In this document: positions 32,983-51,013 of the stretch, one piece after another
Position numbering within the stretch: position 1 is the first letter of the stretch
Layout of the letters: every line of letters starts with the position of its first letter
Virus record (IMG/VR): IMGVR_UViG_3300025590_000010
Location: 1 to 53,744 of that record
DNA length: 53,744 nucleotides
From: a virus
Taxonomy: Duplodnaviria > Caudoviricetes
Direction: 5' to 3' (one strand)
The notes under the pieces: generated by a model
Seen by the model: only the letters and a program-made list of their open reading frames with translations
Database searches by the model: none
What the model was told of the DNA's origin: nothing
Translations under genes and position numbers: made by a program

Positions 32983-34584
32983 TCAATACCCGAATGATGG
33001 ATCACTAGCCTGAAAGCCAGTGCGTTGTTTTGCTGGGTTGTAATCCCATATGCTGCTACGTGGACGTGTCATAATACCATATCTTAGAGCGTCATATAAG
33101 TGATCCTCTGCATGAGTATCAACATCTTCTGGGTTTCGCTTGTCCAGAGGAATACTAGGTATCTGTGCAATAGTGTTTGTACAGTTATCCATGAATACAA
33201 GTTGAGGCTTCTCAGTGAACTCATCCACCTTTAACCGTCTATGTATCTCGTTCTTACCTGCGACACGTGAGCCTCTTGACCTGTCAGACGGACGCCAACG
33301 ACACCCTTTTTGATTCATCTGCTCTGCCAAGCTAGGCCCAGTGTCGCCACGGTTGTGCCATAAAGAACTATCTAGCACCCCGTATCGTATTGTACCATCT
33401 TTTGCTTCTGCTTCAAGTATTAAATCTGCTAAATCAGAAGCTGTAACTTTAGAGACGTACATCTCACGGTACACAATGACTTGCTCATCAGGTGCTACAG
33501 CAAACCACAGAACACCAGTGTAGCTACCATAACCGTAATCGCAAGACCTAAACTTTGCCCAAGAGTCAGGTACATCGAATGCGTCCACGACATGTATCTT
33601 TCGGTCAAACTCTGGAAAAGCTGCACCCTCGTTAATGTCCCAGTTACCTTCAAGTAACTGCTTGCGCTGATGCTCTGGAAGCGAGAGAAGCATTGCTTCA
33701 TAGTCGCCAGCGTCAGCCAAGTACGGATTGTCGAATAGAGAGGCTGGAATAAAGCGTCTTTTAAATAGAGGCATACCTTCTTTACTATGCCCTTTAGGGA
33801 AAGTAATCGTGTCGCCTGTTTCAATATTAGTTGCCCAGAACGGCTTACCACCGATTGCAGGGTCAATAAACATCTTTTTAACCCAAGCATGTCCTGCTCC
33901 TCCGGGGTTTGTTGTTGCTCTCATGTATAGGCCAAGATTGGAAGCATGTGCAGATCTCAAGCGAGACCTCATATAATCCCAAGCGTAAGGGCTAGACCAT
34001 TGCGTAAGCTCATCGAATCCAATCCAGTTAAAAGCCTGACCTTGATACCGTGTGACATCCGTGTCTTTATCAAGATAAGACATCCAAAGTCTGCCACCCT
34101 GAGGAGAAGTCCATTGCGATTTACGTTCCGACCACTTAATACCAGGTATTGCACGGGGGTATAACTCCTGACTCTTTTGTATAAGTTCTCTTAGTTCTTC
34201 CGTAGTATGTCGGACTAGCAACCCTGAGAAGTTAGGGTCATTCAGTCCATGTAGAGGGTCAGCCAACATGGCGTAGCTCTTACCTCCACCAGCTGCTCCA
34301 CCATAAAGTACCTCACGTTCTGACGCACTCAAGAAGGATGTCTGAGGGCCAGGGTTAGGTTTGAATACTACCTGCTGAGCTTCCTCAACATCATACTCAG
34401 GCGCTTTAACTTGTGCAGGTATACTCTCTACAACAGTAGCAACAGGCTCCTCAATACTTTTCGTTAGGGTCTGTGTAGGCTCCTGCGCCTTTCCTTTCGA
34501 GCTTTTCGATTTGGTCAAGCGTTTCTTCGAGCCACTTGGCAAGCTTACGTTTAATTGTAATTGCTTTTCTACGTTTTTGCTCAA
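32983..34584 (-). CDS. terL: Terminase large subunit (start uncertain)
   Basis: LYGGAAGGGKS Walker A, FDELTQW Walker B, TTNPGG, DYGY, DHLYDALRYG nuclease motifs. Confidence 0.93.
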   Translation of the reverse strand: MSKNVEKQLQLNVSLPSGSKKRLTKSKSSKGKAQEPTQTLTKSIEEPVATVVESIPAQVKAPEYDVEEAQQVVFKPNPGPQTSFLSASEREVLYGGAAGGGKSYAMLADPLHGLNDPNFSGLLVRHTTEELRELIQKSQELYPRAIPGIKWSERKSQWTSPQGGRLWMSYLDKDTDVTRYQGQAFNWIGFDELTQWSSPYAWDYMRSRLRSAHASNLGLYMRATTNPGGAGHAWVKKMFIDPAIGGKPFWATNIETGDTITFPKGHSKEGMPLFKRRFIPASLFDNPYLADAGDYEAMLLSLPEHQRKQLLEGNWDINEGAAFPEFDRKIHVVDAFDVPDSWAKFRSCDYGYGSYTGVLWFAVAPDEQVIVYREMYVSKVTASDLADLILEAEAKDGTIRYGVLDSSLWHNRGDTGPSLAEQMNQKGCRWRPSDRSRGSRVAGKNEIHRRLKVDEFTEKPQLVFMDNCTNTIAQIPSIPLDKRNPEDVDTHAEDHLYDALRYGIMTRPRSSIWDYNPAKQRTGFQASDPSFGY

Positions 34585-34867: not shown

Positions 34868-35232
34868 TCGTTTGAACCTTCTTTTGGTGGCAGATAGAAG
34901 ATGCCTCCACCAGATGTTACGTCTATTTTGTCTACCTTACCAAGTCCTGCACGATCTAGCAAGTCCTTAGCTGCAATCATCTTCTCTTTTATGCCTAGCT
35001 CAGTAGGGTCATACAGAGCACCTACCATAGACATAGCAGCTTTAGGAGCAACACGTGCAAAGTAAGTACGTGTCTTCTCACCGATCTCATCCTTGAGAGC
35101 TTCAACAATAGCCGAAGTGCTAGATGCAGGGTCATAACCTGCAAGCTTCTTAGCTGCTACTGCATCACCGTTAGCCTCATCAAAGAGTACCTCTAGGAAG
35201 CGCTGTTGCTTTTCTGTTAGTGCTCTAGCCAT
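34864..35232 (-). CDS. terS: Terminase small subunit
   Basis: LTEKQQRFL...A.KLAGY HTH, AAKDLLDRAG motif; upstream of terL. Confidence 0.75.
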   Translation of the reverse strand: MARALTEKQQRFLEVLFDEANGDAVAAKKLAGYDPASSTSAIVEALKDEIGEKTRTYFARVAPKAAMSMVGALYDPTELGIKEKMIAAKDLLDRAGLGKVDKIDVTSGGGIFYLPPKEGSNE

Positions 35233-35241
35233 GTTATTTCC

Positions 35242-35715
35242 TTACCACTTGCCTTGTTTTACGCCTAGGAAGTACATCCCTATTATTAAAGCACCCACAC
35301 CCGCTAATGCTACTGCAATACCTACAGCCCAGTTAATACAGTTGTCTATGAACTCTTGCTTCTTATAGACTAACTCACGTTGTTCTTTGCGTTGCTGTGC
35401 TTCTATTCGTACTATCTCATCCCAGGCACTAGGGCCATACGTCCAAGAGATGTGTGCCTTAAGCTCTTCTCGCATCTCTTTGAGCTTCTGCTTTTGTGAC
35501 CATATGTCTAATGCAGTAGCTTGGTTGTCATTAAACATCTTGTACATTGGAGGGTTCTTAGCTTTTTCCTCCAAGAAGTCTAGGTCACTTACAGCCTTAG
35601 ACCATTGAGATACTGCACCTGCCATACCACTGATTTCTCTGCCTACAGATACAGCTTTCTTGATGCCATTGTAAGCCGTAGTAGCTGCCGCCATAGCTGT
35701 AAAAGGATCAATCAT
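35242..35715 (-). CDS. Hypothetical protein with C-terminal transmembrane helix
   Basis: MIDPFTAMAAAT.AY..IKK N-terminus; hydrophobic C-terminus. Confidence 0.7.
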   Translation of the reverse strand: MIDPFTAMAAATTAYNGIKKAVSVGREISGMAGAVSQWSKAVSDLDFLEEKAKNPPMYKMFNDNQATALDIWSQKQKLKEMREELKAHISWTYGPSAWDEIVRIEAQQRKEQRELVYKKQEFIDNCINWAVGIAVALAGVGALIIGMYFLGVKQGKW

Positions 35716-35885
35716 TTGAACTTAACCTCTACTGGACATACATAGTTATAACTTACTCTGTACACTCTGTCATACCAGAGACCATTCTTAGGTAAGCCAC
35801 AGTCGTAGTAACAATACTGAAATAACCTATTACCACTGTCAGTCCATGCGTGATTGAATGATATAAAGGCTAGTACGCATAGCAA
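35712..35885 (-). CDS. Small Cys-containing hypothetical protein (57 aa)
   Basis: TTG start; MLCVLAF...YCYYDCG...YVCP*; ATGA overlap with next gene; fills the gap exactly. Confidence 0.55.
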   Translation of the reverse strand: MLCVLAFISFNHAWTDSGNRLFQYCYYDCGLPKNGLWYDRVYRVSYNYVCPVEVKFK

Positions 35886-35887
35886 AA

Positions 35888-36247
35888 CTACTTGCCCTTT
35901 TTATCTAGCATACTTTCGTGGTCACGACCAATGTACTTTAGCTCATTCTCAATAATAGCTACTCGTTGTTGCAGTTCAGTGATCCTAGAGATAGTACGGG
36001 TTAAAGCGTCTAACTCCTCCCATAACTCTTCTACATCATCCCATACGTATTGTATTTCTACACCATTACCTGCAACATCACGTTTAAGGTTAACGTTATC
36101 TTCAATAGCCATACGGGAGCCAAGCTGGCTTACTGTTTCTTCTAGGCTTGCTATTGTGGAGGCTTGTTGAGATACCCACCACACACCACCAGCAAGCTGT
36201 ACAGCCATAGCAGCTACAAGTGCTAAAGGTATCTTAACGTTTTCCAC
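35888..36247 (-). CDS. Membrane-anchored coiled-coil protein
   Basis: GTG 36247 with AGGAG RBS; N-terminal TM then heptads. Confidence 0.7.
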   Translation of the reverse strand: MENVKIPLALVAAMAVQLAGGVWWVSQQASTIASLEETVSQLGSRMAIEDNVNLKRDVAGNGVEIQYVWDDVEELWEELDALTRTISRITELQQRVAIIENELKYIGRDHESMLDKKGK

Positions 36248-36261
36248 AATAGCTCTCCTAA

Positions 36262-36432
36262 CTATTTGAAACTTTCTGCTATGACATTGCGTATCTCTCC
36301 ACGAGCAATGCCAATATCGTGTAACTCTTTGTCTGACATGTTGGTTAGAATCCAATAGTCAGCACGGGCTTGTTGTGCTTTCTGTAAACTTGCGAGAAAG
36401 TTTGTGAATGTTTTAACGATTAGTGCGTACAT
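36262..36432 (-). CDS. DUF1127-family small protein (56 aa)
   Basis: MYALIVKTFTNFLASLQKAQQARADYWILTNMSDKELHDIGIARGEIRNVIAESFK; L..MSD..L.DIGI.R.EI signature; AGGA RBS; missing from ORF track. Confidence 0.8.
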   Translation of the reverse strand: MYALIVKTFTNFLASLQKAQQARADYWILTNMSDKELHDIGIARGEIRNVIAESFK

Positions 36433-36534
36433 GGTATGTTCCTATGTGTTTAGCCTAGCTCCACTGCTAGACTTACATAGTTATACTCATGTTAGCGCTA
36501 TTTACCTCTACTAAGTTTGCATACCCGCTATGTG

Positions 36535-36894
36535 TTATCCAACAGGTACAAACGTTTCAGTTACAGTAAGGATAGTGTCAATATGACCAGCAGTAGTGGG
36601 AACGTTTTGTATCTTGTCACCAGGCTGTAGTACTAGGTCAATGTTTGTGAAGGAAACGTAATCACCAGCATTCAAACTCTTGCCTGACAGAAAGTGAGAC
36701 GTATAAGAATCAGCTGCTACATACCATTCTACATCTACAGAGTTTGTACTGCCACCACCGTTGACTACATGGATAAACGTAACCTCAGCTACACAGTTAG
36801 CAGGGCATGTATATACAACCTCTGTAGTATTGGTACTGTTGTGACCATACACAGAACGCATACGTGATGGCTTGCCCTGATTAACTAAACTCAT
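36535..36894 (-). CDS. Beta-rich hypothetical (possible virion) protein
   Basis: VYTCPAN...I.VVN, LVLQPGDKI pattern. Confidence 0.6.
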   Translation of the reverse strand: MSLVNQGKPSRMRSVYGHNSTNTTEVVYTCPANCVAEVTFIHVVNGGGSTNSVDVEWYVAADSYTSHFLSGKSLNAGDYVSFTNIDLVLQPGDKIQNVPTTAGHIDTILTVTETFVPVG

Positions 36895-37196
36895 TACTCG
36901 TCAACCCACGCTTCATTCTCTGGTGTGCTAGGATCATCTGCTATGTAGTGACCCTTAGATGTACGAGCACGTTTCTTACCCTTAGGTGCTGCAGCCTTCT
37001 TAGCCTTCTTAGGCTGTGTAGCTGCAATGTCAGCTGCTTCACAGATAGCATTAACGTTAGGGTCTTTGCTCTGTACGTTACCGTAGTTGTCTTCACCAGC
37101 TGACTGGTTACCCATGGAGTCCCACACGTAGCCATGCTCATCTACACGGTAACCCTTAGCTTCCAGTGCTTCTTGGTACTTGTGATAATACTTCAT
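36894..37196 (-). CDS. Hypothetical protein
   Basis: 100 aa; C-terminal KRAR..KGHY.ADDPSTPENEAW. Confidence 0.65.
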   Translation of the reverse strand: MKYYHKYQEALEAKGYRVDEHGYVWDSMGNQSAGEDNYGNVQSKDPNVNAICEAADIAATQPKKAKKAAAPKGKKRARTSKGHYIADDPSTPENEAWVDE

Positions 37197-37396
37197 TACT
37201 TCATCTTCTTCATAGGACGTTCTGCTGGATTAGATGCACCACAAGCTAAGCCACCTTCCTTGTAGCCCATCTTCTTCTTAGTCATACCACCCATACCGTA
37301 GCCTGACTTCTTAGCCATACCGCCACCCATGTAACCCATCTTCTTAGCTACTTCTGGTGCTTCCTTCTTAAGAGCCTTCATACCTTTGTTCATCAT
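37196..37396 (-). CDS. Small Lys/Met/Gly-rich basic protein (66 aa)
   Basis: ATG 37396 with GAGGA RBS; three GY..GG motifs. Confidence 0.7.
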   Translation of the reverse strand: MMNKGMKALKKEAPEVAKKMGYMGGGMAKKSGYGMGGMTKKKMGYKEGGLACGASNPAERPMKKMK

Positions 37397-37397
37397 T

Positions 37398-37706
37398 TTA
37401 GTATTCCTCATCCATGTGTTGATCTTTACAGTCCCACCCTTGGCAGGACTTCTCTTGGCTACAAACAAACTTAAACTTACTACAAGCACCTAAGCCAGAC
37501 TCAATGTTCAATGACTTGAGAGTACGAGCACGGTTGTCAAAGTAATCACAGTTACCACAGGTCTTTAGCTCAGCCATCTCTGTAGGCTTATCCCAAGCCT
37601 TGCCTAGCTCCTCAGCAGTAGCACCATACATCCAGTATGTCTCTGCACGGTCACGGTTCTTAGGGTCAACCTCAGGTGGCTCCCCTAACATCAAACTCAT
37701 CATCAT
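37398..37706 (-). CDS. Cys-rich small protein, putative metal-binding
   Basis: CGNCDYF...GAC..FKFVC....SC.GW; start ATG 37706 overlaps upstream stop. Confidence 0.65.
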   Translation of the reverse strand: MMMSLMLGEPPEVDPKNRDRAETYWMYGATAEELGKAWDKPTEMAELKTCGNCDYFDNRARTLKSLNIESGLGACSKFKFVCSQEKSCQGWDCKDQHMDEEY

Positions 37707-37975
37707 GTTCGTTTCTTCCCTGATGCTGTAGTAGACCACTTAACTTTCTTTGGTCCTGTTTTCTTTGCTGCTTCTTTCTTACTAATCTTAGAAGCTACTG
37801 CCTTTGGTCTACAAGCTGGGTAGTCCCTACCGTCACCCTTAGACCTACCACAAGGCTTACCTGTCTTAACGTCTGTCCACTCTTCACCAAACCACTTACC
37901 TAAGCCACCAGCGGCATAACCACGAGCATTAGGCAGTACGTGTTGGCTATTTAACTTTGTTGGCTTTCGTGCCAC
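37703..37975 (-). CDS. Small basic protein (90 aa)
   Basis: GTG 37975 with GGAGGT RBS; GGLGKWF.E.W.DVKTGKPCGR...YPACRP. Confidence 0.7.
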   Translation of the reverse strand: MARKPTKLNSQHVLPNARGYAAGGLGKWFGEEWTDVKTGKPCGRSKGDGRDYPACRPKAVASKISKKEAAKKTGPKKVKWSTTASGKKRT

Positions 37976-38114
37976 TGTACTTACCTCCACGTGCTTTGTA
38001 AGTCTTAGTAAGCCAAGCAGACGCATAAGCGCTGGGCCATACGTCAAACTTCTTCTTAGCCTCAGCCTTGACCTTGTTATACAGTTTCGTGTTAGTCGGC
38101 TTAGGTGCTGCCAT
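37947..38114 (-). CDS. Small basic protein (55 aa), DUF5872-like
   Basis: PTNTKLYNKVKAEAKKKFDVWPSAYASAWL.K.YKARGGKY; not in ORF track. Confidence 0.7.
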   Translation of the reverse strand: MAAPKPTNTKLYNKVKAEAKKKFDVWPSAYASAWLTKTYKARGGKYSGTKANKVK

Positions 38115-38326
38115 TACGCTGGCTCCCCATTGTAGCTTAGAGCTACACAGTTAGGCACTATCGTTGCGTGACTGTACTGCTCTTTAATCTTACGTGCTTC
38201 AGCTACGATAGAAGCCTGACACTCCTCTACACTGCTAAACACATACGGACTAGTCAATACCTGGCAATGCTCAGCTAAGGCAGACATACATACCATCATA
38301 ACACCAAGAGTACCTATGCTCACCAT
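38114..38326 (-). CDS. Small hypothetical protein with hydrophobic N-terminus and four Cys
   Basis: ORF track; tight packing with neighbours. Confidence 0.55.
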   Translation of the reverse strand: MVSIGTLGVMMVCMSALAEHCQVLTSPYVFSSVEECQASIVAEARKIKEQYSHATIVPNCVALSYNGEPA

Positions 38327-38598
38327 TTTACTTTATCAGCCCAGTACGCAGCAGAGAGCTTACCCTTCTTGATATTCTTAGCATGTCTAGCTTTGAAGGA
38401 TGCACGTTTCTTCTTCATGCGATCAGATTCACCTGCTTTAGGCTTACCTGCTGTGGACGCTCCCTGTTCACCGAAGCGGATGAGCTTAATGGTGTCACCT
38501 TCTTTGGCAAGGACAGCGTGGGACTTGGTAGGGTGCTTGGGAGTACGCTTGGGTTTGTTGTAACCTTCAAACTTCTCACCTCTATACTCAATCGCCAT
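38320..38598 (-). CDS. Small basic protein
   Basis: YNKPKRTP.HP.KS..VLAK...KLIRFG...R.SFKARH...SAAYWA.K.KW. Confidence 0.75.
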   Translation of the reverse strand: MAIEYRGEKFEGYNKPKRTPKHPTKSHAVLAKEGDTIKLIRFGEQGASTAGKPKAGESDRMKKKRASFKARHAKNIKKGKLSAAYWADKVKW

Positions 38599-38848
38599 AA
38601 GGTCTCTTCCTGTCAGGGTCTAACACATCACTACGAGATAACATGCCCTCTAAGTACATAGCCCTCTCTACGTGATCCAGAGAGTACCTAACCCCTGTGT
38701 CAGCCTCTATAGCTGCACGTGCATAGAACACGTCACTACGAGGGATATGAATACGGCGTATACGCTTGGCACTACCGTCAGCTAAAGCAGAGTAAAACTC
38801 TTCTAGTATGTTATCATCTGCATATAGTTGTACGGGTTTAACAGGCAT
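38588..38848 (-). CDS. Hypothetical protein, first gene of the left-pointing arm
   Basis: HIPRSDVFYARAAIEA motif; start probably ATG 38848. Confidence 0.6.
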   Translation of the reverse strand: MPVKPVQLYADDNILEEFYSALADGSAKRIRRIHIPRSDVFYARAAIEADTGVRYSLDHVERAMYLEGMLSRSDVLDPDRKRPYGD

Positions 38849-38854
38849 TGTCAA
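38825..38854 (-). promoter_or_regulatory. Promoter TTGACA-N16-TACAACTA
   Basis: Same architecture as 27043-27072, 39231-39260 and 50984-51013. Confidence 0.6.
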
Positions 38855-38867
38855 CACTTTTCTTAAT

Positions 38868-38992
38868 AAAAAAGGTACGTGTCGCAAACTACATGTTAGG
38901 AGAGAGGAGACATGAGGAGAGTATACACATATGTTTGTGACACGTACCAGGAATGTAACACTTATGTTTATACAAGTTTATGTGTGTTACAT
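38868..38992 (-). ncRNA. Putative small RNA with anti-Shine-Dalgarno loop
   Basis: Promoter upstream, 9-bp 5' stem, 16-bp terminal stem with three UCUCCU in the loop, U6 tail; no ORF. Confidence 0.6.
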
Positions 38993-38998
38993 ATGGAT

Positions 38999-39027
38999 AG
39001 TGTACAAACTATTAAGAAGGGTGTCAA
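38999..39027 (-). promoter_or_regulatory. Sigma70-type promoter TTGACA-N17-TACACT
   Basis: -35 at 39027-39022, -10 at 39004-38999; predicted start about 38992. Confidence 0.7.
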
Positions 39028-39030
39028 CCC

Positions 39031-39212
39031 TATAGTTAAACTATCTAAGTTAAACTTACTATTAATTATTACTTATATAAAGTTATAAGTGTATAGTTAA
39101 ACTCTGTAAGTTAAACTCTTCCTATGTCCAGTAACTTTATTAACACACTCTTTATATAGTTTAACTATTTATTATTTATTACTTGTATTAAGTTTAACTT
39201 AAATGTTTAACT
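39031..39212. repeat. AGTTAAACT iteron-like array in AT-rich DNA
   Basis: Forward at 39034, 39048, 39095, 39109; inverted at 39158, 39191, 39204 (last has 1 mismatch). Confidence 0.8.
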
Positions 39213-39230
39213 CTGTCTACTACTACTACG

Positions 39231-39260
39231 TAGTTATACTCCACAGAACACCCCTGTCAA
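39231..39260 (-). promoter_or_regulatory. Promoter TTGACA-N16-TATAACTA
   Basis: -35 at 39260-39255, box at 39238-39231. Confidence 0.65.
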
Positions 39261-39579
39261 TCCCTAAAATACGCATACTCGTAAGAAAGTTTTACTAATG
39301 AGCGGATCTTTGCCTATGTGTTACATAAATGCACCACTTATATGCTTATGTGTTTGGAATGTGGCAACAATAAGGCAATCTAAAATACCCGTGCGTGTAG
39401 TTGTACATATATACGTAACCCCATACCCGCCCGTGGCCCTCGCACCCCCCCTCTTTTAGCATGGCATAGGGCGAATCGTGGTGGTTTGACTTGGTAAGTT
39501 ACTGTAAATGCTGTACTCTTTAACTGATGTGTCGTCAGACTATTCAAGAAAAGCGTGTGTTTTCAAGGAGTTTCAAAAG

Positions 39580-39646
39580 TGTGATCACAAATCAAAGAGG
39601 GATGCACAAAACACCAAACCACACCCCCTATTATGTGATCACAAAT
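39580..39646. promoter_or_regulatory. Two copies of palindrome TGTGATCACA(AAT), putative operators
   Basis: 13-bp identical copies at 39580 and 39634. Confidence 0.5.
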
Positions 39647-39886
39647 AGGCCACCCCCTCAAAGTAATGGCTGACTATATAATGGCACAAAAGAAAAACAT
39701 TCCTGCCAAGCCACAATGCGACAACATTATCCAACAAAAACACAGACTTATAAAATAATTAGGATAAAACGCAAAATAATTCTGGACAATCACAAAACAT
39801 TCGGGCCATAGTGAATACATCGAAAGCGACAAGGTTCAACCGCTAGCAGCGTAGCTCTACAAAAGAATCAGCGTCCTAGGCGATCA

Positions 39887-39981
39887 AGCCGCATAGAAGA
39901 GCCGCATAGAATACCAAGACCGAATAAAAGTAAGACCGAATAAAACGATTGACTAACTAAACCGAATATGCAGACTGAATA
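39887..39981 (+). repeat. Short direct repeats around an early promoter
   Basis: AGCCGCATAGAA x2 (39887, 39900); AAGACCGAATAAAA x2 (39916, 39932) plus two degenerate copies; TTGACT at 39949. Confidence 0.7.
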
Positions 39982-40200
39982 GCAACAGAAGTAACGGCAC
40001 ATAGACTAGCTTAAGGACAGCGTCCAAGATACGGGGCGGTAGTACGGTGACTTGAATCAGCCCGTCAAAGGTCTGAGCTAGTGTGTCTAACAGATATAGC
40101 TAGGATAGGCTTTCCAGGTTACCGCTTGGCTTGTGCCTATCTCATGGTGTATCTAACCAATCACCTTAACCAATTAAATCTAACACAAGGAATGACCCCC

Positions 40201-40467
40201 ATGTATGTAATCGAAAAGAACATCCCAATGCCAAACGCAACTCGCAATGGCGTGGCTTACTATAAATACCCCTTCTTCACCATGAATGTTGGTGACAGTT
40301 TTGCTGTGCCTGTAGATCCAAGTACCACGTTAGGATACATCCGTACCCGTAGTCGTGTGGCTAATTGTGTATATAAACAACACCAGCGTCCCAATAACAA
40401 CAACATGAAATTCTGCTACCGCACAGATAAGGTGAACCGTGTGATCCGTGTCTGGCGCACAGCATAA
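40201..40467 (+). CDS. Early hypothetical protein (small, likely DNA-binding)
   Basis: IEKNIPMP...YKYPF..M.VGDSF.V...RVWR; AAGGA RBS upstream of ATG 40201. Confidence 0.7.
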   Translation: MYVIEKNIPMPNATRNGVAYYKYPFFTMNVGDSFAVPVDPSTTLGYIRTRSRVANCVYKQHQRPNNNNMKFCYRTDKVNRVIRVWRTA

Positions 40468-43764: not shown

Positions 43765-43940
43765 CAGTATATCCCTTCAACACAACTAACTTGATGCCTG
43801 CCTCAGACTACTATCACAAACTGTTGAAGCAGATTGATGATGCGTACTGGAACGGTGGAACGGCTAAGGCATTGGAGCTTACAGCTATGGACGTTAAGGA
43901 ACACATAGAGAGAGGAGACGCATGGTATCCCAACTTCTAA
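43761..43940 (+). CDS. Hypothetical protein (59 aa)
   Basis: ATGA overlap; ends RGDAWYPNF. Confidence 0.55.
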   Translation: MTVYPFNTTNLMPASDYYHKLLKQIDDAYWNGGTAKALELTAMDVKEHIERGDAWYPNF

Positions 43941-44024: not shown

Positions 44025-44942
44025 ATGAAGATCCCCAAGGCTTCTTCCACACTACAGGAAGTCATTGATTTCTATAGTAAGTCTGCTGCATTTTGTCGGC
44101 TATCAGGCTCTACACAGAAAGACTATGACATCCACTTGGCTGCAATATGCAGTACTGTAGTTGAGGGCAAGGCACTTGGGGCTTATCGCCATAAGTCTAT
44201 CAAGGTACGTCACCTCACTCAGGCTTACGAGGATTGGTTATCCTCTGGTGTTCGCACAGCGAATTACCGCAAGTCTGTGTTATCTATTGCGTGGAAATAT
44301 GCGATGAGGCATGACGTAATGACGCACGATCCAGTAGCTCTAGTACAAACCAGGTCTGGTCAACCACGGCGTGTACTATGGAGCCGAGATCAAGTGCAGA
44401 CATTCCTTGCTACAGCTTATGGCGACTTCCGTTGGCGCAGCATTGGTCTGATCGTCCACATGGCATATGATTGGGGGCAGCGTGTTGGTGATATGCGTGT
44501 TCTCACTTGGGATAAGCTAGACTTAACTCAGTGCCGCTTGGACTTAACTCAGAGCAAACGCAACGCAGAGGTACACCTCCCTATCTCATCAGGGTTGTGT
44601 GATATGCTGCGCCAGCAGAAGGAAGACTTTAAGTTTCAGGAGTATGTAGCACCCCGTGTTAAGCCACGAGCAGGTGCATACACACCCTATGATAAACTAG
44701 AAATAAGCTATCTTATCAATGACGTACTGAAAGAAGCTAACCTACCTACCACCCTGACAGCCATGGACTTACGGCGCACGGCAGTGACAGAAATGATGGA
44801 GGGTGGGGTAGACTTAGCAGGTATCATGCAGGTGACAGGACACAAGAACATAACGTCCATCAAACCCTACATGGTCAACACATTCAGCGGTGCATCGAAA
44901 GCATTAGCAGCTAGAGGAAACGATGACGATGAACATTCGTAG
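44025..44942 (+). CDS. int: Tyrosine integrase/recombinase
   Basis: GQRVGD (Arg), QSK (Lys), DLRRT, TGH, terminal Tyr in KPY. Confidence 0.88.
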   Translation: MKIPKASSTLQEVIDFYSKSAAFCRLSGSTQKDYDIHLAAICSTVVEGKALGAYRHKSIKVRHLTQAYEDWLSSGVRTANYRKSVLSIAWKYAMRHDVMTHDPVALVQTRSGQPRRVLWSRDQVQTFLATAYGDFRWRSIGLIVHMAYDWGQRVGDMRVLTWDKLDLTQCRLDLTQSKRNAEVHLPISSGLCDMLRQQKEDFKFQEYVAPRVKPRAGAYTPYDKLEISYLINDVLKEANLPTTLTAMDLRRTAVTEMMEGGVDLAGIMQVTGHKNITSIKPYMVNTFSGASKALAARGNDDDEHS

Positions 44943-48954: not shown

Positions 48955-51003
48955 ATGAGACTAGTATTAGACGTTGAGAACAGTGTGACTTGGAGGGATG
49001 GCAAGATCTTTAATGATCCCTTTGAGCCTACCAACACACTAACTCAGGTTGGCATGGTAAATGCTGACAATCACGAAGAGTTACATATTGTAAACTTAGA
49101 TCACAATGAAGCTAAGGATACGTCAGGTGCAGGCCGTGCATTGATACAGAGTGTGCTGGACATGACAACCCTGCTCATTATGCACAATGCTAGGCATGAC
49201 TTGATGTGGCTGTGGGAGAGCGGCTTCACCTATGACGGTGCAATCTATGACACAATGCTGGCTGAGTACCTACTTCTACGTGGACAGAAGGATGCTATAT
49301 CCCTTAGCGCCTGTGCTATACGCCGTAACCTAGCTGAGCAGAAGGAAGACTACCTATCTACGTGCATCAAGAAAGGTATCAACACCAATGAGACTGATCT
49401 CAGTAAGCTTAGCCTTTATACTAGGGCTGACCTGCTCACAACTAGTGAGTTGTTCCACAGTATCGAAGCAGACTACGCAACCCCAGAGAGTAAGTCCCTA
49501 CACACCGTCAGAGAAGTTACCTTCGATACCTGTAAGACCCTCACCAGAATGTACATGTCAGGAATCAGGGTGGATCTTGAAGAACTAGAACGGGTGCGTG
49601 AACAGTTTGAGGATGAACGCTCTGAGTTAGAGACACGACTACAGCAACGTGTTCGTGAACTAATGGGTGACACACCTATCAATATAGGCTCACCAGAGCA
49701 GATGTCACAGGTTGTGTTCAGTGTTCGTATGAATAACAAGAAGGAATGGGATGGACTATTTGAGTTCACTAATGACTCGGCGGAATTCCGCTCAGCAGTA
49801 AAGGCTAACAGCCACCCTATCTATCGCACCAAGGCATTCACCTGCCCTACATGCGAGGGTGAAGGCAAGACATACAAGACCAAGAAGGATGGCACTAGGT
49901 TTGCTAAGCCTAATAAGTGCAAGGACTGTGATGCACGTGGCTTTCAACTAACACATACAGATCAGATTGCTGGCTTGCGTTTCTCTGCACCTAACAAAAA
50001 GTGGGTAAGTGCTAATGGTTTCAGCACAAGCAAGGACAAGATACAACAGCTAATAGGTACAGCAAAGACACACAACAAGGATGATGCTGTCTCCTTCCTG
50101 CAAGACTATCTGCGTTACTCAGCTATCCGCAGCTACCTGTCTACGTTTGTGGATGGTATAGGTATCTACTCAAAGGATGATGGCTTCCTACATGCTACGC
50201 TCACTCAGAGCGTGACAGCTACTGGACGTTTCAGTGGTAAGGAACCTAACATGCAGAACATGCCACGTGGGGGTACATTCCCTGTTAAGCGTGTGTTTGT
50301 GTCACGCTGGAAGGGTGGTCAGATATGTGAGGCTGACTTTGCCCAGCTTGAGTTTAGAACGGCTGCATACCTAGCCCAGGATGAGATTGCTATGGAGGAG
50401 ATTAACACAGGGTTCGATGTTCACAGCTACACAGCCAAGGTTATCTCTGATGCAGGTCAACCTACGACACGGCAACAAGCAAAGGAACACACCTTCGCAC
50501 CCCTCTTTGGGGCTACAGGTTATGGCAGAAGTAAGGCAGAGGAGGCGTACTACATTCAGTTCATTGATAAGTATAAGGGGATTGCAGCATGGCATAAGAA
50601 CTTAGGAGAGGAGGCAATGCGCTTCAATAAGATTACCAATGTTTCGGGTAGGCAGTACGCTTTCCCTGACATATCTCGTAGGTCAAACGGGAGTGTAACA
50701 CACTTCACGATGATCAAGAACTATCCAGTGCAGGGGTTTGCAACAGGTGATGTCGTACCTGTCGTACTCAATGAGATGTACAAGCGTCTTGAACCTATGC
50801 AATCCTGTCTGGTTAATACCGTGCATGACTCAACAGTGATTGACATACACCCTGACGAAGTAGATCAGGTACTAGGTATGGTAAATGATATGAATGAGGG
50901 CTTGACTGATCTAGTTGAGTCAGTGTATGGAATAAGAATGAATGTGCCTCTACTATTAGAAGCTAAAATCGGCCCCAACTGGCTTGACACAGTGGATGTT
51001 TGA
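48955..51003 (+). CDS. polA: Family A DNA polymerase with inserted DnaJ-like zinc finger
   Basis: LDVE and HN...D exonuclease motifs, CPTCEGEG/CKDCDARG insert, TATGRFS, DFAQLEFR, NYPVQG, TVHDS. Confidence 0.95.
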   Translation: MRLVLDVENSVTWRDGKIFNDPFEPTNTLTQVGMVNADNHEELHIVNLDHNEAKDTSGAGRALIQSVLDMTTLLIMHNARHDLMWLWESGFTYDGAIYDTMLAEYLLLRGQKDAISLSACAIRRNLAEQKEDYLSTCIKKGINTNETDLSKLSLYTRADLLTTSELFHSIEADYATPESKSLHTVREVTFDTCKTLTRMYMSGIRVDLEELERVREQFEDERSELETRLQQRVRELMGDTPINIGSPEQMSQVVFSVRMNNKKEWDGLFEFTNDSAEFRSAVKANSHPIYRTKAFTCPTCEGEGKTYKTKKDGTRFAKPNKCKDCDARGFQLTHTDQIAGLRFSAPNKKWVSANGFSTSKDKIQQLIGTAKTHNKDDAVSFLQDYLRYSAIRSYLSTFVDGIGIYSKDDGFLHATLTQSVTATGRFSGKEPNMQNMPRGGTFPVKRVFVSRWKGGQICEADFAQLEFRTAAYLAQDEIAMEEINTGFDVHSYTAKVISDAGQPTTRQQAKEHTFAPLFGATGYGRSKAEEAYYIQFIDKYKGIAAWHKNLGEEAMRFNKITNVSGRQYAFPDISRRSNGSVTHFTMIKNYPVQGFATGDVVPVVLNEMYKRLEPMQSCLVNTVHDSTVIDIHPDEVDQVLGMVNDMNEGLTDLVESVYGIRMNVPLLLEAKIGPNWLDTVDV

Positions 51004-51013
51004 GGTATAACTA
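50984..51013 (+). promoter_or_regulatory. Promoter TTGACA-N16-TATAACTA
   Basis: Overlaps polA 3' end, upstream of putative SSB. Confidence 0.7.

Follow-up and report, generated by a model that had tools for sequence, protein, structure and literature searches.

The subject of this report is a small gene on the minus strand (36262..36432) of the IMG/VR virus record IMGVR_UViG_3300025590_000010, the whole of which, 53,744 bases, was analysed and is referred to below as the window. The gene encodes a protein of 56 amino acids (aa) of the DUF1127 family. It is a real gene under purifying selection, and the CRP-type (HMO-2011-type) phages of Roseobacter RCA strains have conserved it as an accessory gene. 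The reading that we favour, with a confidence a little above even, is that the gene has its own internal promoter, that its ribosome-binding site (RBS) is masked in read-through transcripts, and that the protein is an RNA-binding protein like CcaF1 of Rhodobacter sphaeroides. A preliminary description of the window had gone further and proposed that the gene and a CU-rich RNA encoded upstream of it are the two halves of one regulatory module. However the distribution of gene and RNA is partly independent, and the two are not one unit of inheritance.

A DUF1127 gene of Roseobacter phages

36262..36432, minus strand: DUF1127 small-protein coding sequence (CDS), 56 aa and a TAG stop, recognised as an open reading frame (ORF) with an ATG start, by Pfam, by its homologues and by dN/dS

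The assignment to DUF1127, already made in the preliminary description, is borne out by Pfam: PF06568 matches the protein with an E-value of 1.1e-7 and 31.9 bits, against a gathering cut-off of 23.3, and residues 13-48 align with positions 2-37 of the 37 in the profile. The ORF contains LTNMSDKELHDIGIARGEI, and the core [ST]D[RK]xLxDIGIxRxxI, which is expected in DUF1127 proteins of about 40-75 aa, is present. Over 41 phage and cellular sequences six residues (L29, L37, D39, I40, G41 and R44) never vary, and conservation is 90% or more at D34, I42 and I47. An AF2 model of the protein has three helices (residues 2-30, 34-39 and 44-54; mean pLDDT 77.9). Foldseek of this model against the PDB found nothing at E<=0.001, with weak SAM-domain rows at E above 5, and a profile search of PDB sequences gave only matches at E 0.3-1.7, with SAM-domain rows at E 0.45-1.7, none of them significant. 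The sole match in PHROGs was phrog_26566, of unknown function, at E 0.0028.

The closest cultured relatives of the window are the CRP-series phages of Roseobacter RCA strains. Megablast of 35000-40000 drew five matches, each of them a Roseobacter phage; CRP-207 came out best, with 86% identity over 12% of the query. At the protein level tblastn against 50,697 phage records matched ten, again all Roseobacter phages of the CRP series, with 39-67% identity; the CRP homologues are syntenic and are 34-55% identical over the alignment. Each of the ten has an intact reading frame with both a start codon and a Shine-Dalgarno (SD) sequence, and the gene is always found in the same place, ahead of the terminase genes. 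In the six relatives that belong to the window's own subgroup it is preceded by a conserved gene of some 120 aa. The CRP-1 and CRP-345 homologues carry C-terminal extensions, and those of CRP-603 and CRP-2 N-terminal ones.

The gene had been called unannotated, and this holds for the earlier ORF track of the window, but for the relatives it does not, as a CDS is already called at the same spot in nine of the ten CRP phages, CRP-13 being the one without a call. One of these, CRP-603 gp69 (UAW59236.1), is already named 'DUF1127 domain-containing protein', the only one of the ten so named; the homologues in CRP-1, -2, -3, -207, -212, -235, -345 and -738 are unnamed. In the literature on 'DUF1127' and 'phage', judged by title and abstract, we found no work on a phage-encoded DUF1127 protein, and the term DUF1127 has no occurrence in the main text of the HMO-2011-type phage paper. 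This is a known family in a new setting, the phage, with one relative annotated in the database.

The family is well represented in metagenomic phage sequence. The window protein is of a subtype marked by QQARADYWIL, to which many IMG/VR contigs belong at 75-96% identity; a pattern scan of IMG/VR found at least 427 stretches that encode DUF1127 relatives, and a word-indexed search of metagenomic proteins gave 52 clusters of relatives, with PF06568 in 51 of them. Among 29 close homologues the median dN/dS is 0.113 (353 pairs), and synonymous differences from the window copy reach 0.9 per site. The proposal that the ORF is merely a chance open frame, which its shortness (56 aa) and its absence from the earlier ORF track might suggest, is contradicted by the Pfam match, the conservation and the dN/dS, and we give it almost no credence. 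As the gene is kept, at a dN/dS of 0.11, where most small genes turn over, a measurable infection phenotype is to be expected, and a strongly constrained phage-borne DUF1127 gene in an abundant marine phage group would make a compact natural test case.

Cellular relatives were also sought, and the best 80 of 336 confirmed in species-representative genomes were compared. Those with a taxon in the title are mainly from the Alphaproteobacteria (Sulfitobacter, Roseobacter, Roseovarius, Marivivens, Bradyrhizobium and Sneathiella), and two short segments of 22 residues reach 77% identity. The sequences give no sign of a recent capture of the phage gene from a host. One metagenome-assembled contig of 15 kb labelled 'uncultured bacterium', L206, has a DUF1127 domain identical over the aligned core to those of CRP-603 and CRP-2; this contig is probably a piece of phage DNA that binning placed in a bacterial genome.

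The control region and a proposed masking helix

36440..36443, minus strand: AGGA SD sequence, 7 nt ahead of the ATG at 36432-36430
36442..36480, minus strand: predicted RBS-occluding stem, in which CTATGT (36480-36475) pairs with ACATAG (36447-36442), overlapping the SD
36452..36473, minus strand: leader hairpin AGUCUAGC-AGUGGA-GCUAGGCU, a predicted fold of 8 pairs
36476..36485, minus strand: -10-like box TATAACTATG, with the hexamer TATAAC at 36485-36480, invariant in 31 close relatives
36502..36527, minus strand: upstream 26-mer CGGGTATGCAAACTTAGTAGAGGTAA, a candidate activator or UP-type site

The AGGA RBS, the hairpin and the TATAACTA box (36485-36478) of the preliminary description are all seen in the sequence, and the box, there taken to be the gene's own promoter-like element, is kept by all the relatives that were examined. 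The order found in 31 distinct close relatives is CGGGTATGCAAACTTAGTAGAGGTAA, 16 variable bases and then (G)TATAACTATG, and the non-coding stretch past the stop codon of the upstream gene is better conserved than coding sequence. The 26-mer is near-invariant in about 27 of the 31 despite synonymous sites that are close to saturation, and has one copy in the window where none is expected (up to 3 mismatches allowed). Among the more distant CRP phages its core CGGGKWTKC (the CGGGTATGC motif) is recognisable in nine of ten and degenerate in CRP-235, and a TATAAY box lies 26-57 nt ahead of the ATG in all ten. The spacing from CGGG to the box, counted by eye, is 42-43 nt in the window, CRP-207 and CRP-1. 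For the upstream motif, RpoH-like and sigma-54-like readings were rejected for misfit of spacing, again judged by eye.

Two elements of the leader, GTATAACTATG and ACATAGGAA, are invariant across 22 distinct leader sequences, ACATAGGAA being the SD region; the more distant CRP phages have AAGGAGA at the equivalent position. The hairpin core (CTAGC 36470-36466, AGTGGA, GCTAG 36459-36455) is paired in 108 of 108 cells over the 22 sequences, with only one varying pair, and its covariation score over them is no better than that of shuffles (231/500). A script found a hairpin of other sequence at the same place in CRP-603, CRP-345 and CRP-1, and one was seen by eye only in CRP-13; the remaining six CRP leaders are short (14-24 nt), with predicted pairing that is weak at most.

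In the minimum free energy (MFE) fold of 36425-36540 (z -3.07) the CUAUGU right behind the TATAAC hexamer is paired with ACAUAG. Equivalent arms are found in CRP-207 (CTATCTCC / GGAGATAG), CRP-603 (ATGTTCAT / ATGAACAT), CRP-212 (ATTACCT / AGGTAAT), CRP-13 (GTCTCCG / CGGAGAC) and CRP-345 (CTTGTAA / TTACAAG), and at least five different sequence pairs serve this pairing in the 11 phages compared. The duplex energy of the segment behind the box with the phage's own SD/AUG region has a mean of -9.97 kcal/mol in these 11, against -6.49 for non-cognate combinations. That the pairing is maintained in such varied sequences suggests that translation may occur only from transcripts begun at the gene's own promoter.

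The box itself is best seen beside other sites of the window. The following promoter-like sites were found by pattern scan.

39260-39233, 39027-38999, 38854-38827 and 21279-21251, minus strand: promoter-like family TTGACA-N16/17-TATAAC or TACAMY
50984-51011, plus strand: further site of this TTGACA family
35777-35741, minus strand: further promoter-like site, the one with ATGACA

The pattern TTGACA-N15-18-TAYAMY occurs five times in the window against 0.45 expected, and none of 100 shuffles reaches five. The TATAACTA extension is common to the TTGACA-N16-TATAAC sites at 39260 and 50984 and to the ATGACA-N17 site at 35750. A generic scan of the window for promoters and terminators gave 8 promoter-like sites where 8.6 are expected; it missed every TATAAC site because it required T at position 6 of the hexamer. 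We infer that the DUF1127 box is the -10 element of an internal promoter that would be activator-dependent or otherwise atypical.

In the mechanism we favour, DUF1127 is the first gene behind an internal and conserved promoter-like element (the CGGGTATGC motif and, about 42 nt on, TATAACTA) within the packaging and structural arm of the genome. The bases right behind the -10 box would form the 5' arm of a helix over the SD and start codon of the gene. In read-through transcripts from upstream promoters the RBS would be masked and the gene left untranslated. For a start 6-9 nt past the hexamer the 5' arm would lie mostly upstream, so that transcripts from the gene's own promoter should lack it and hence be translated. 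The product would most likely be a small RNA-binding protein which, by the example of CcaF1, acts late in infection to change how host or phage RNAs are processed or how stable they are. A covarying RBS-masking arm beside a -10 box is a simple regulatory layout, and is directly testable.

Assembled metatranscriptomes contain contigs, in 4 runs of 4 studies (X1-X4), that are 90-99% identical to parts of 35700-39300, with the DUF1127 gene and its own leader included. Another proposal is that the TATAACTA box and the 26-mer are an RNA-level element, a processing or protein-binding site in a long polycistronic transcript, with the helix present in all transcripts. RNA-library contigs of 3 runs do cross the region unbroken, but assembled contigs are blind to transcript starts. 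The lack of a -35 at the box would also fit such an element, as would the uniqueness of the 26-mer in the genome and the fact that the helix takes in the last base of the box hexamer. However canonical TTGACA-spaced sites elsewhere in this genome have a -10 context identical to the box, and the box is invariant whereas the adjacent arm covaries with the RBS. On balance we consider the RNA-level element unlikely.

One contig without DUF1127, L138, is instructive with regard to the control element. Its empty slot retains a diverged motif, a TACAACTATG box, a small hairpin and an ATAGGAG SD, followed by the next conserved gene. As the element is kept in the empty slot, it belongs to the transcription unit, with DUF1127 a cassette behind it. 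In L138 (7122-7734 and 10388-10534) the gene with a hydrophobic N-terminus lies after the first gene of the arm, and one RNA-library contig, from run X3, joins 36211 to 38646, the same junction as in L138.

There are several points that weigh against the favoured reading. At the box there is no TTGACA-like -35, and the generic sigma-70 scan is silent there. The sequence TATAACTATG with up to one mismatch is not enriched by itself, with 9 found and 5.8 expected in the window. In the permutation test on cognate pairing 0 of 5000 permutations were as low, but the test ignores kinship among the phages, which inflates the result, and in CRP-738 and CRP-235 the pairing behind the box is weak (-3.0 and -3.3 kcal/mol). 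The metatranscriptome contigs are uninformative on starts, ends, strand and level, and DNA carry-over is possible. With regard to RNA binding, the domain of the window protein has 3 arginines and 1 lysine, where the phage clade has a median of 4 and 1 and the cellular proteins a median of 5 arginines, and among the best 80 of the 336 cellular relatives identity is mostly 33-57%. Also YjiS of Salmonella, a DUF1127 protein, is reported to have no RNA association and to be membrane-associated (PMC11707872), and thus membership of the family alone is no predictor of RNA binding.

The CU-loop leader RNA

Pfam searches with 37 ORFs give the layout of the genome. A plus-strand arm (about 40.1-53.7 kb and 0.1-4.1 kb) carries genes for integrase, ThyX, a DnaB-like helicase, family A DNA polymerase, endonuclease I, MazG, ribonucleotide reductase and PhoH. 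A minus-strand arm runs from 38.85 kb to 4.3 kb and has small genes, the large terminase, portal and structural genes; the terminase genes come after the DUF1127 gene and its neighbour with the hydrophobic N-terminus. A 1.2-kb non-coding region at 38.9-40.1 kb separates the starts of these two divergent arms.

38846..39027, minus strand: proposed partner RNA, marked by a promoter-like site, hairpins, a fold and the model R1
39027-38999, minus strand: promoter-like TTGACA-17-TACACT, found by the generic promoter scan
38948-38874, minus strand: long hairpin with a 21-pair stem and a 30-nt CU-rich loop, the second of two hairpins
38873-38868, minus strand: U-run after the CU-loop hairpin
38846-38854, minus strand: TTGACAATG with an ATG at 38848, the first gene of the minus-strand arm, twenty bases past the U-run

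That a structured CU-loop RNA is encoded at about 38992-38868 on the minus strand, as the preliminary description had it, is upheld by the fold (MFE -36.7 kcal/mol, z -5.66). The loop in the window contains CUCCUC and CUCCUCUCUCCU and is without CCUCCUCCC; CRP-207 has CUCCUCCCUCCU, and UGUCUCC is kept in the loop across 18 aligned relatives. The same leader layout is seen in CRP-207, CRP-603, CRP-2 and many IMG/VR contigs, and the stem shows compensatory changes. Among the leaders of the relatives the U-run is not kept. No relevant Rfam match was found at gathering score over the whole window, or at E<=10 over 35800-40300. As a positive control, 20 cellular DUF1127 loci were searched, and in 3 of them (L233, L241 and L257) Rfam ar14 was found 14-16 nt past the gene. 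The CU-loop element is most aptly called a 5' leader, that of another gene; in some phages it may also terminate transcription.

The end of the RNA (about 38868) is 2.4 kb upstream of the start of the DUF1127 gene (36432), with about nine ORFs between them. R1, a covariance model of the CU-loop leader, was used to search the entire genome of each of the ten cultured phages that have DUF1127. It matches three, CRP-207 (E 5.6e-21) and CRP-2 and CRP-603 (E 1e-10 each); CRP-345 gave a weak match (E 0.046) without the CU loop, and nothing was found in CRP-1, -13, -212, -738, -235 and -3. Among IMG/VR loci with DUF1127, 26 of 80 have an R1 match, and when only loci with 4 kb or more of sequence upstream are counted, also 26 in number, 17 are positive and 9 negative. 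The RNA-positive phages have DUF1127 proteins of two subtypes, one shared by the window and CRP-207 and the other by CRP-603 and CRP-2. Neither is confined to phages with the RNA, for RNA-negative phages have them too, the first in CRP-13 and CRP-212 and the second in CRP-1 and CRP-345.

For the converse question, IMG/VR was scanned with a pattern of the CU-loop hairpin; this yielded 72 new loci, of which 37 have R1 matches. Three of the 37 have less than 2.4 kb of downstream sequence and are uninformative; in 32 of the 34 with enough, DUF1127 is on the same strand, 1.5-6.4 kb further down. In the other two, the contigs L138 (55.4 kb) and L098 (26.9 kb), the CU-loop leader is clear but neither the Pfam model nor the clade profile finds DUF1127 anywhere, the 7 kb downstream included.

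These data bear directly on the proposal that DUF1127 and the CU-loop RNA are a dedicated phage version of the CcaF1/CcsR module, in which the protein would bind or mature the RNA and the CU loops would block SD sequences. Gene and RNA are on the same strand and in the same arm, and in the CIN1 loci of Rhodobacter the RNA may be 5' or 3' of the gene (as reported in PMC8034643), but here the two are not adjacent, the RNA is the leader of another gene, and its U-run is not conserved. The CUCCUC and CUCCUCUCUCCU of the loop and the conservation of UGUCUCC in 18 relatives would suit an anti-SD function; however the window has no ar14 or CcsR match, although the positive control worked. The 32 of 34 RNA-positive contigs with DUF1127 downstream could be read as linkage, but such a share is to be expected if the gene is near-universal in the clade. 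In contrast the RNA is in only three of the ten cultured phages and is missing from 9 of the 26 loci with enough upstream sequence, both RNA-positive subtypes of the protein also occur without it, and L138 and L098 have it without the gene. We consider the module distinctly improbable.

The preliminary description had itself said that independent distribution among relatives would count against the pairing of gene and RNA, and with the distribution being partly independent that is in large part what was found. As the leader is present in only some of these phages, we infer that the DUF1127 protein does not depend on it, and we put little weight on a dedicated pairing of the two, though the protein may bind the RNA where both are present. 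The negative result matters, for the tempting module of a phage CcaF1 with a CcsR-type RNA is not inherited as a unit.

A few further observations concern the leader and its surroundings. Complementarity of the CU loop to phage RNAs includes 10-nt matches at 36262, which is the RBS of the gene after DUF1127, and at 34428; there is also a 12-nt perfect complement to the CU-rich loop, GAGAGAGGAGAC, at 43908-43919 on the plus strand, some 105 nt ahead of the integrase gene. With about one 10-mer per strand expected by chance, none of these was used as evidence. The minus-strand arm has a first gene that always begins TTGACAATG without an SD (window, L001, L002, L007, L008, L010 and many IMG/VR loci), and this start is kept even where the phage leader is otherwise unrelated. 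The promoter-like TTGACA-16-TACAAC at 38854-38827 lies at the start of this gene, and its TACAA may merely encode (V/I)Q.

Within the divergent non-coding region, 39031-39180 has three iteron-like copies of TATAGTTAAACT.T.TAAGTTAAACT at a spacing of 61-63 nt, between two promoter-like sites, and there are more short repeats and palindromes in the region, for example TGTGATCACAAAT and AAGACCGAATAAAA, each present twice. These repeats may be an operator or origin region. The tyrosine integrase gene (44025-44939, plus strand; Pfam Phage_integrase, E 7e-19) suggests a possible temperate potential of the window phage; the cultured relatives were isolated on RCA strains. A DUF5872 gene appears to be split into two overlapping frames at 37706-38114 on the minus strand, by Pfam the ORF 37950-38114 covering profile positions 1-50 and the ORF 37706-38047 positions 53-108, which could be due to a frameshift, a programmed shift or an assembly error.

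Function of the protein and comparison with known systems

Many DUF1127 proteins are known and few have an assigned role, as noted in PMC8034643 and PMC11707872. For the phage protein RNA binding, suggested by analogy with CcaF1, seems to us close to an even chance though somewhat short of it. That it goes on to rewire host RNA turnover late in infection, for example RNase E-dependent processing or the host's CcsR-type stress sRNAs, in a widespread clade of marine roseophages, with its synthesis gated by an anti-RBS embedded in the promoter and perhaps acting also on the CU-loop RNA where that is present, is a speculation to which we would give a rather low probability.

35888..36247, minus strand: gene after DUF1127, with a GTG start 14 nt past the DUF1127 stop and an N-terminal hydrophobic stretch resembling a transmembrane segment
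3356-4063, plus strand: phoH (Pfam PhoH, E 1.5e-64), not adjacent to the DUF1127 gene

The gene after DUF1127 is probably co-transcribed with it, and its product has no Pfam match. It enters into the proposal that the phage protein resembles YjiS, that is a small membrane-associated or protein-binding regulator that does not bind RNA and that might for example time lysis or packaging, with its N-terminal helix in contact with the membrane or with hydrophobic neighbours. YjiS of Salmonella, as described in PMC11707872, is a DUF1127 protein of about 54 aa with a helical N-terminus, is associated with the inner membrane, and is reported to have no RNA partners. The long N-terminal helix of the AF2 model (2-30), the hydrophobic N-terminus MYALIVKTFTNFLASL and the domain arginines, fewer than in the cellular relatives, all agree with this; however the window protein itself has no transmembrane segment. 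The next gene is only 14 nt downstream and its product is hydrophobic at the N-terminus, but this adjacency is not conserved, CRP-207 and L138 being different and L138 having the homologue of the next gene elsewhere. Also in favour, an annotated endolysin gene lies a few genes downstream in CRP-345 and CRP-1, with a spanin gene too in CRP-345. YjiS has in common with the phage protein the DUF1127 domain, a small size (about 54 aa) and a helical N-terminus, but PMC11707872 places the enterobacterial YjiS clade apart from the alphaproteobacterial DUF1127 proteins, which include the nearest cellular relatives of the phage protein. We regard this proposal as unlikely, if less so than the dedicated module.

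In Agrobacterium tumefaciens small DUF1127 proteins have been linked to phosphate and carbon metabolism (Kraus et al. 2020, as cited in PMC11707872). The phage protein is likewise small and of the alphaproteobacterial type; the difference is that the phosphate and carbon link belongs to the bacterium. The preliminary description had placed the gene alongside phoH, which is an annotated gene of the HMO-2011-type phage group (a figure legend of the HMO-2011-type phage paper), but in the window phoH is on the other strand and in the other arm, about 21 kb from the DUF1127 gene around the map. Nothing here ties the phage DUF1127 gene to phoH or to phosphate.

The system that most invites comparison is that of CcaF1 (RSP_6037, 71 aa) in Rhodobacter sphaeroides, which lies in the CIN1 locus with the 'cuckoo' sRNAs CcsR1-4. 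According to PMC8034643 CcaF1 and its 50-aa KD131 homologue alter the levels of the CcsR RNAs, which are bound by purified CcaF1; the RNA of CIN1 loci is either 5' or 3' of the DUF1127 gene and is assigned to ar14, the cuckoo/NfeR1 family; and CcaF1 has an arginine-rich domain with, by PHYRE2, a resemblance to Smaug/SAM. The weak and non-significant SAM-domain rows of our own searches echo that resemblance. The window protein is also small, consists of DUF1127 only, is of the Alphaproteobacteria type and has the core SD[RK]xLxDIGIxRG, and the window genome too has a CU-rich, anti-SD-like hairpin RNA. However the protein is phage-borne and has fewer domain arginines, and gene and RNA, as well as being distributed partly independently, are neither adjacent nor in one transcript unit, the gene having its own promoter-like box.

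With regard to the RNA, ar14 (Rfam RF02344, the NfeR1/CcsR type) has a CU-rich loop that could pair with SD sequences, as does the phage RNA. Where ar14 was found it follows a cellular DUF1127 gene; the phage RNA instead has a single loop of 25-30 nt and serves as a 5' leader, and it differs from the CcsR RNAs in having one large CU loop, no CCUCCUCCC in the window and no Rfam match. In the case of the other phages, CRP-603 gp69 and the unnamed CRP homologues have the same control-region layout as the window.

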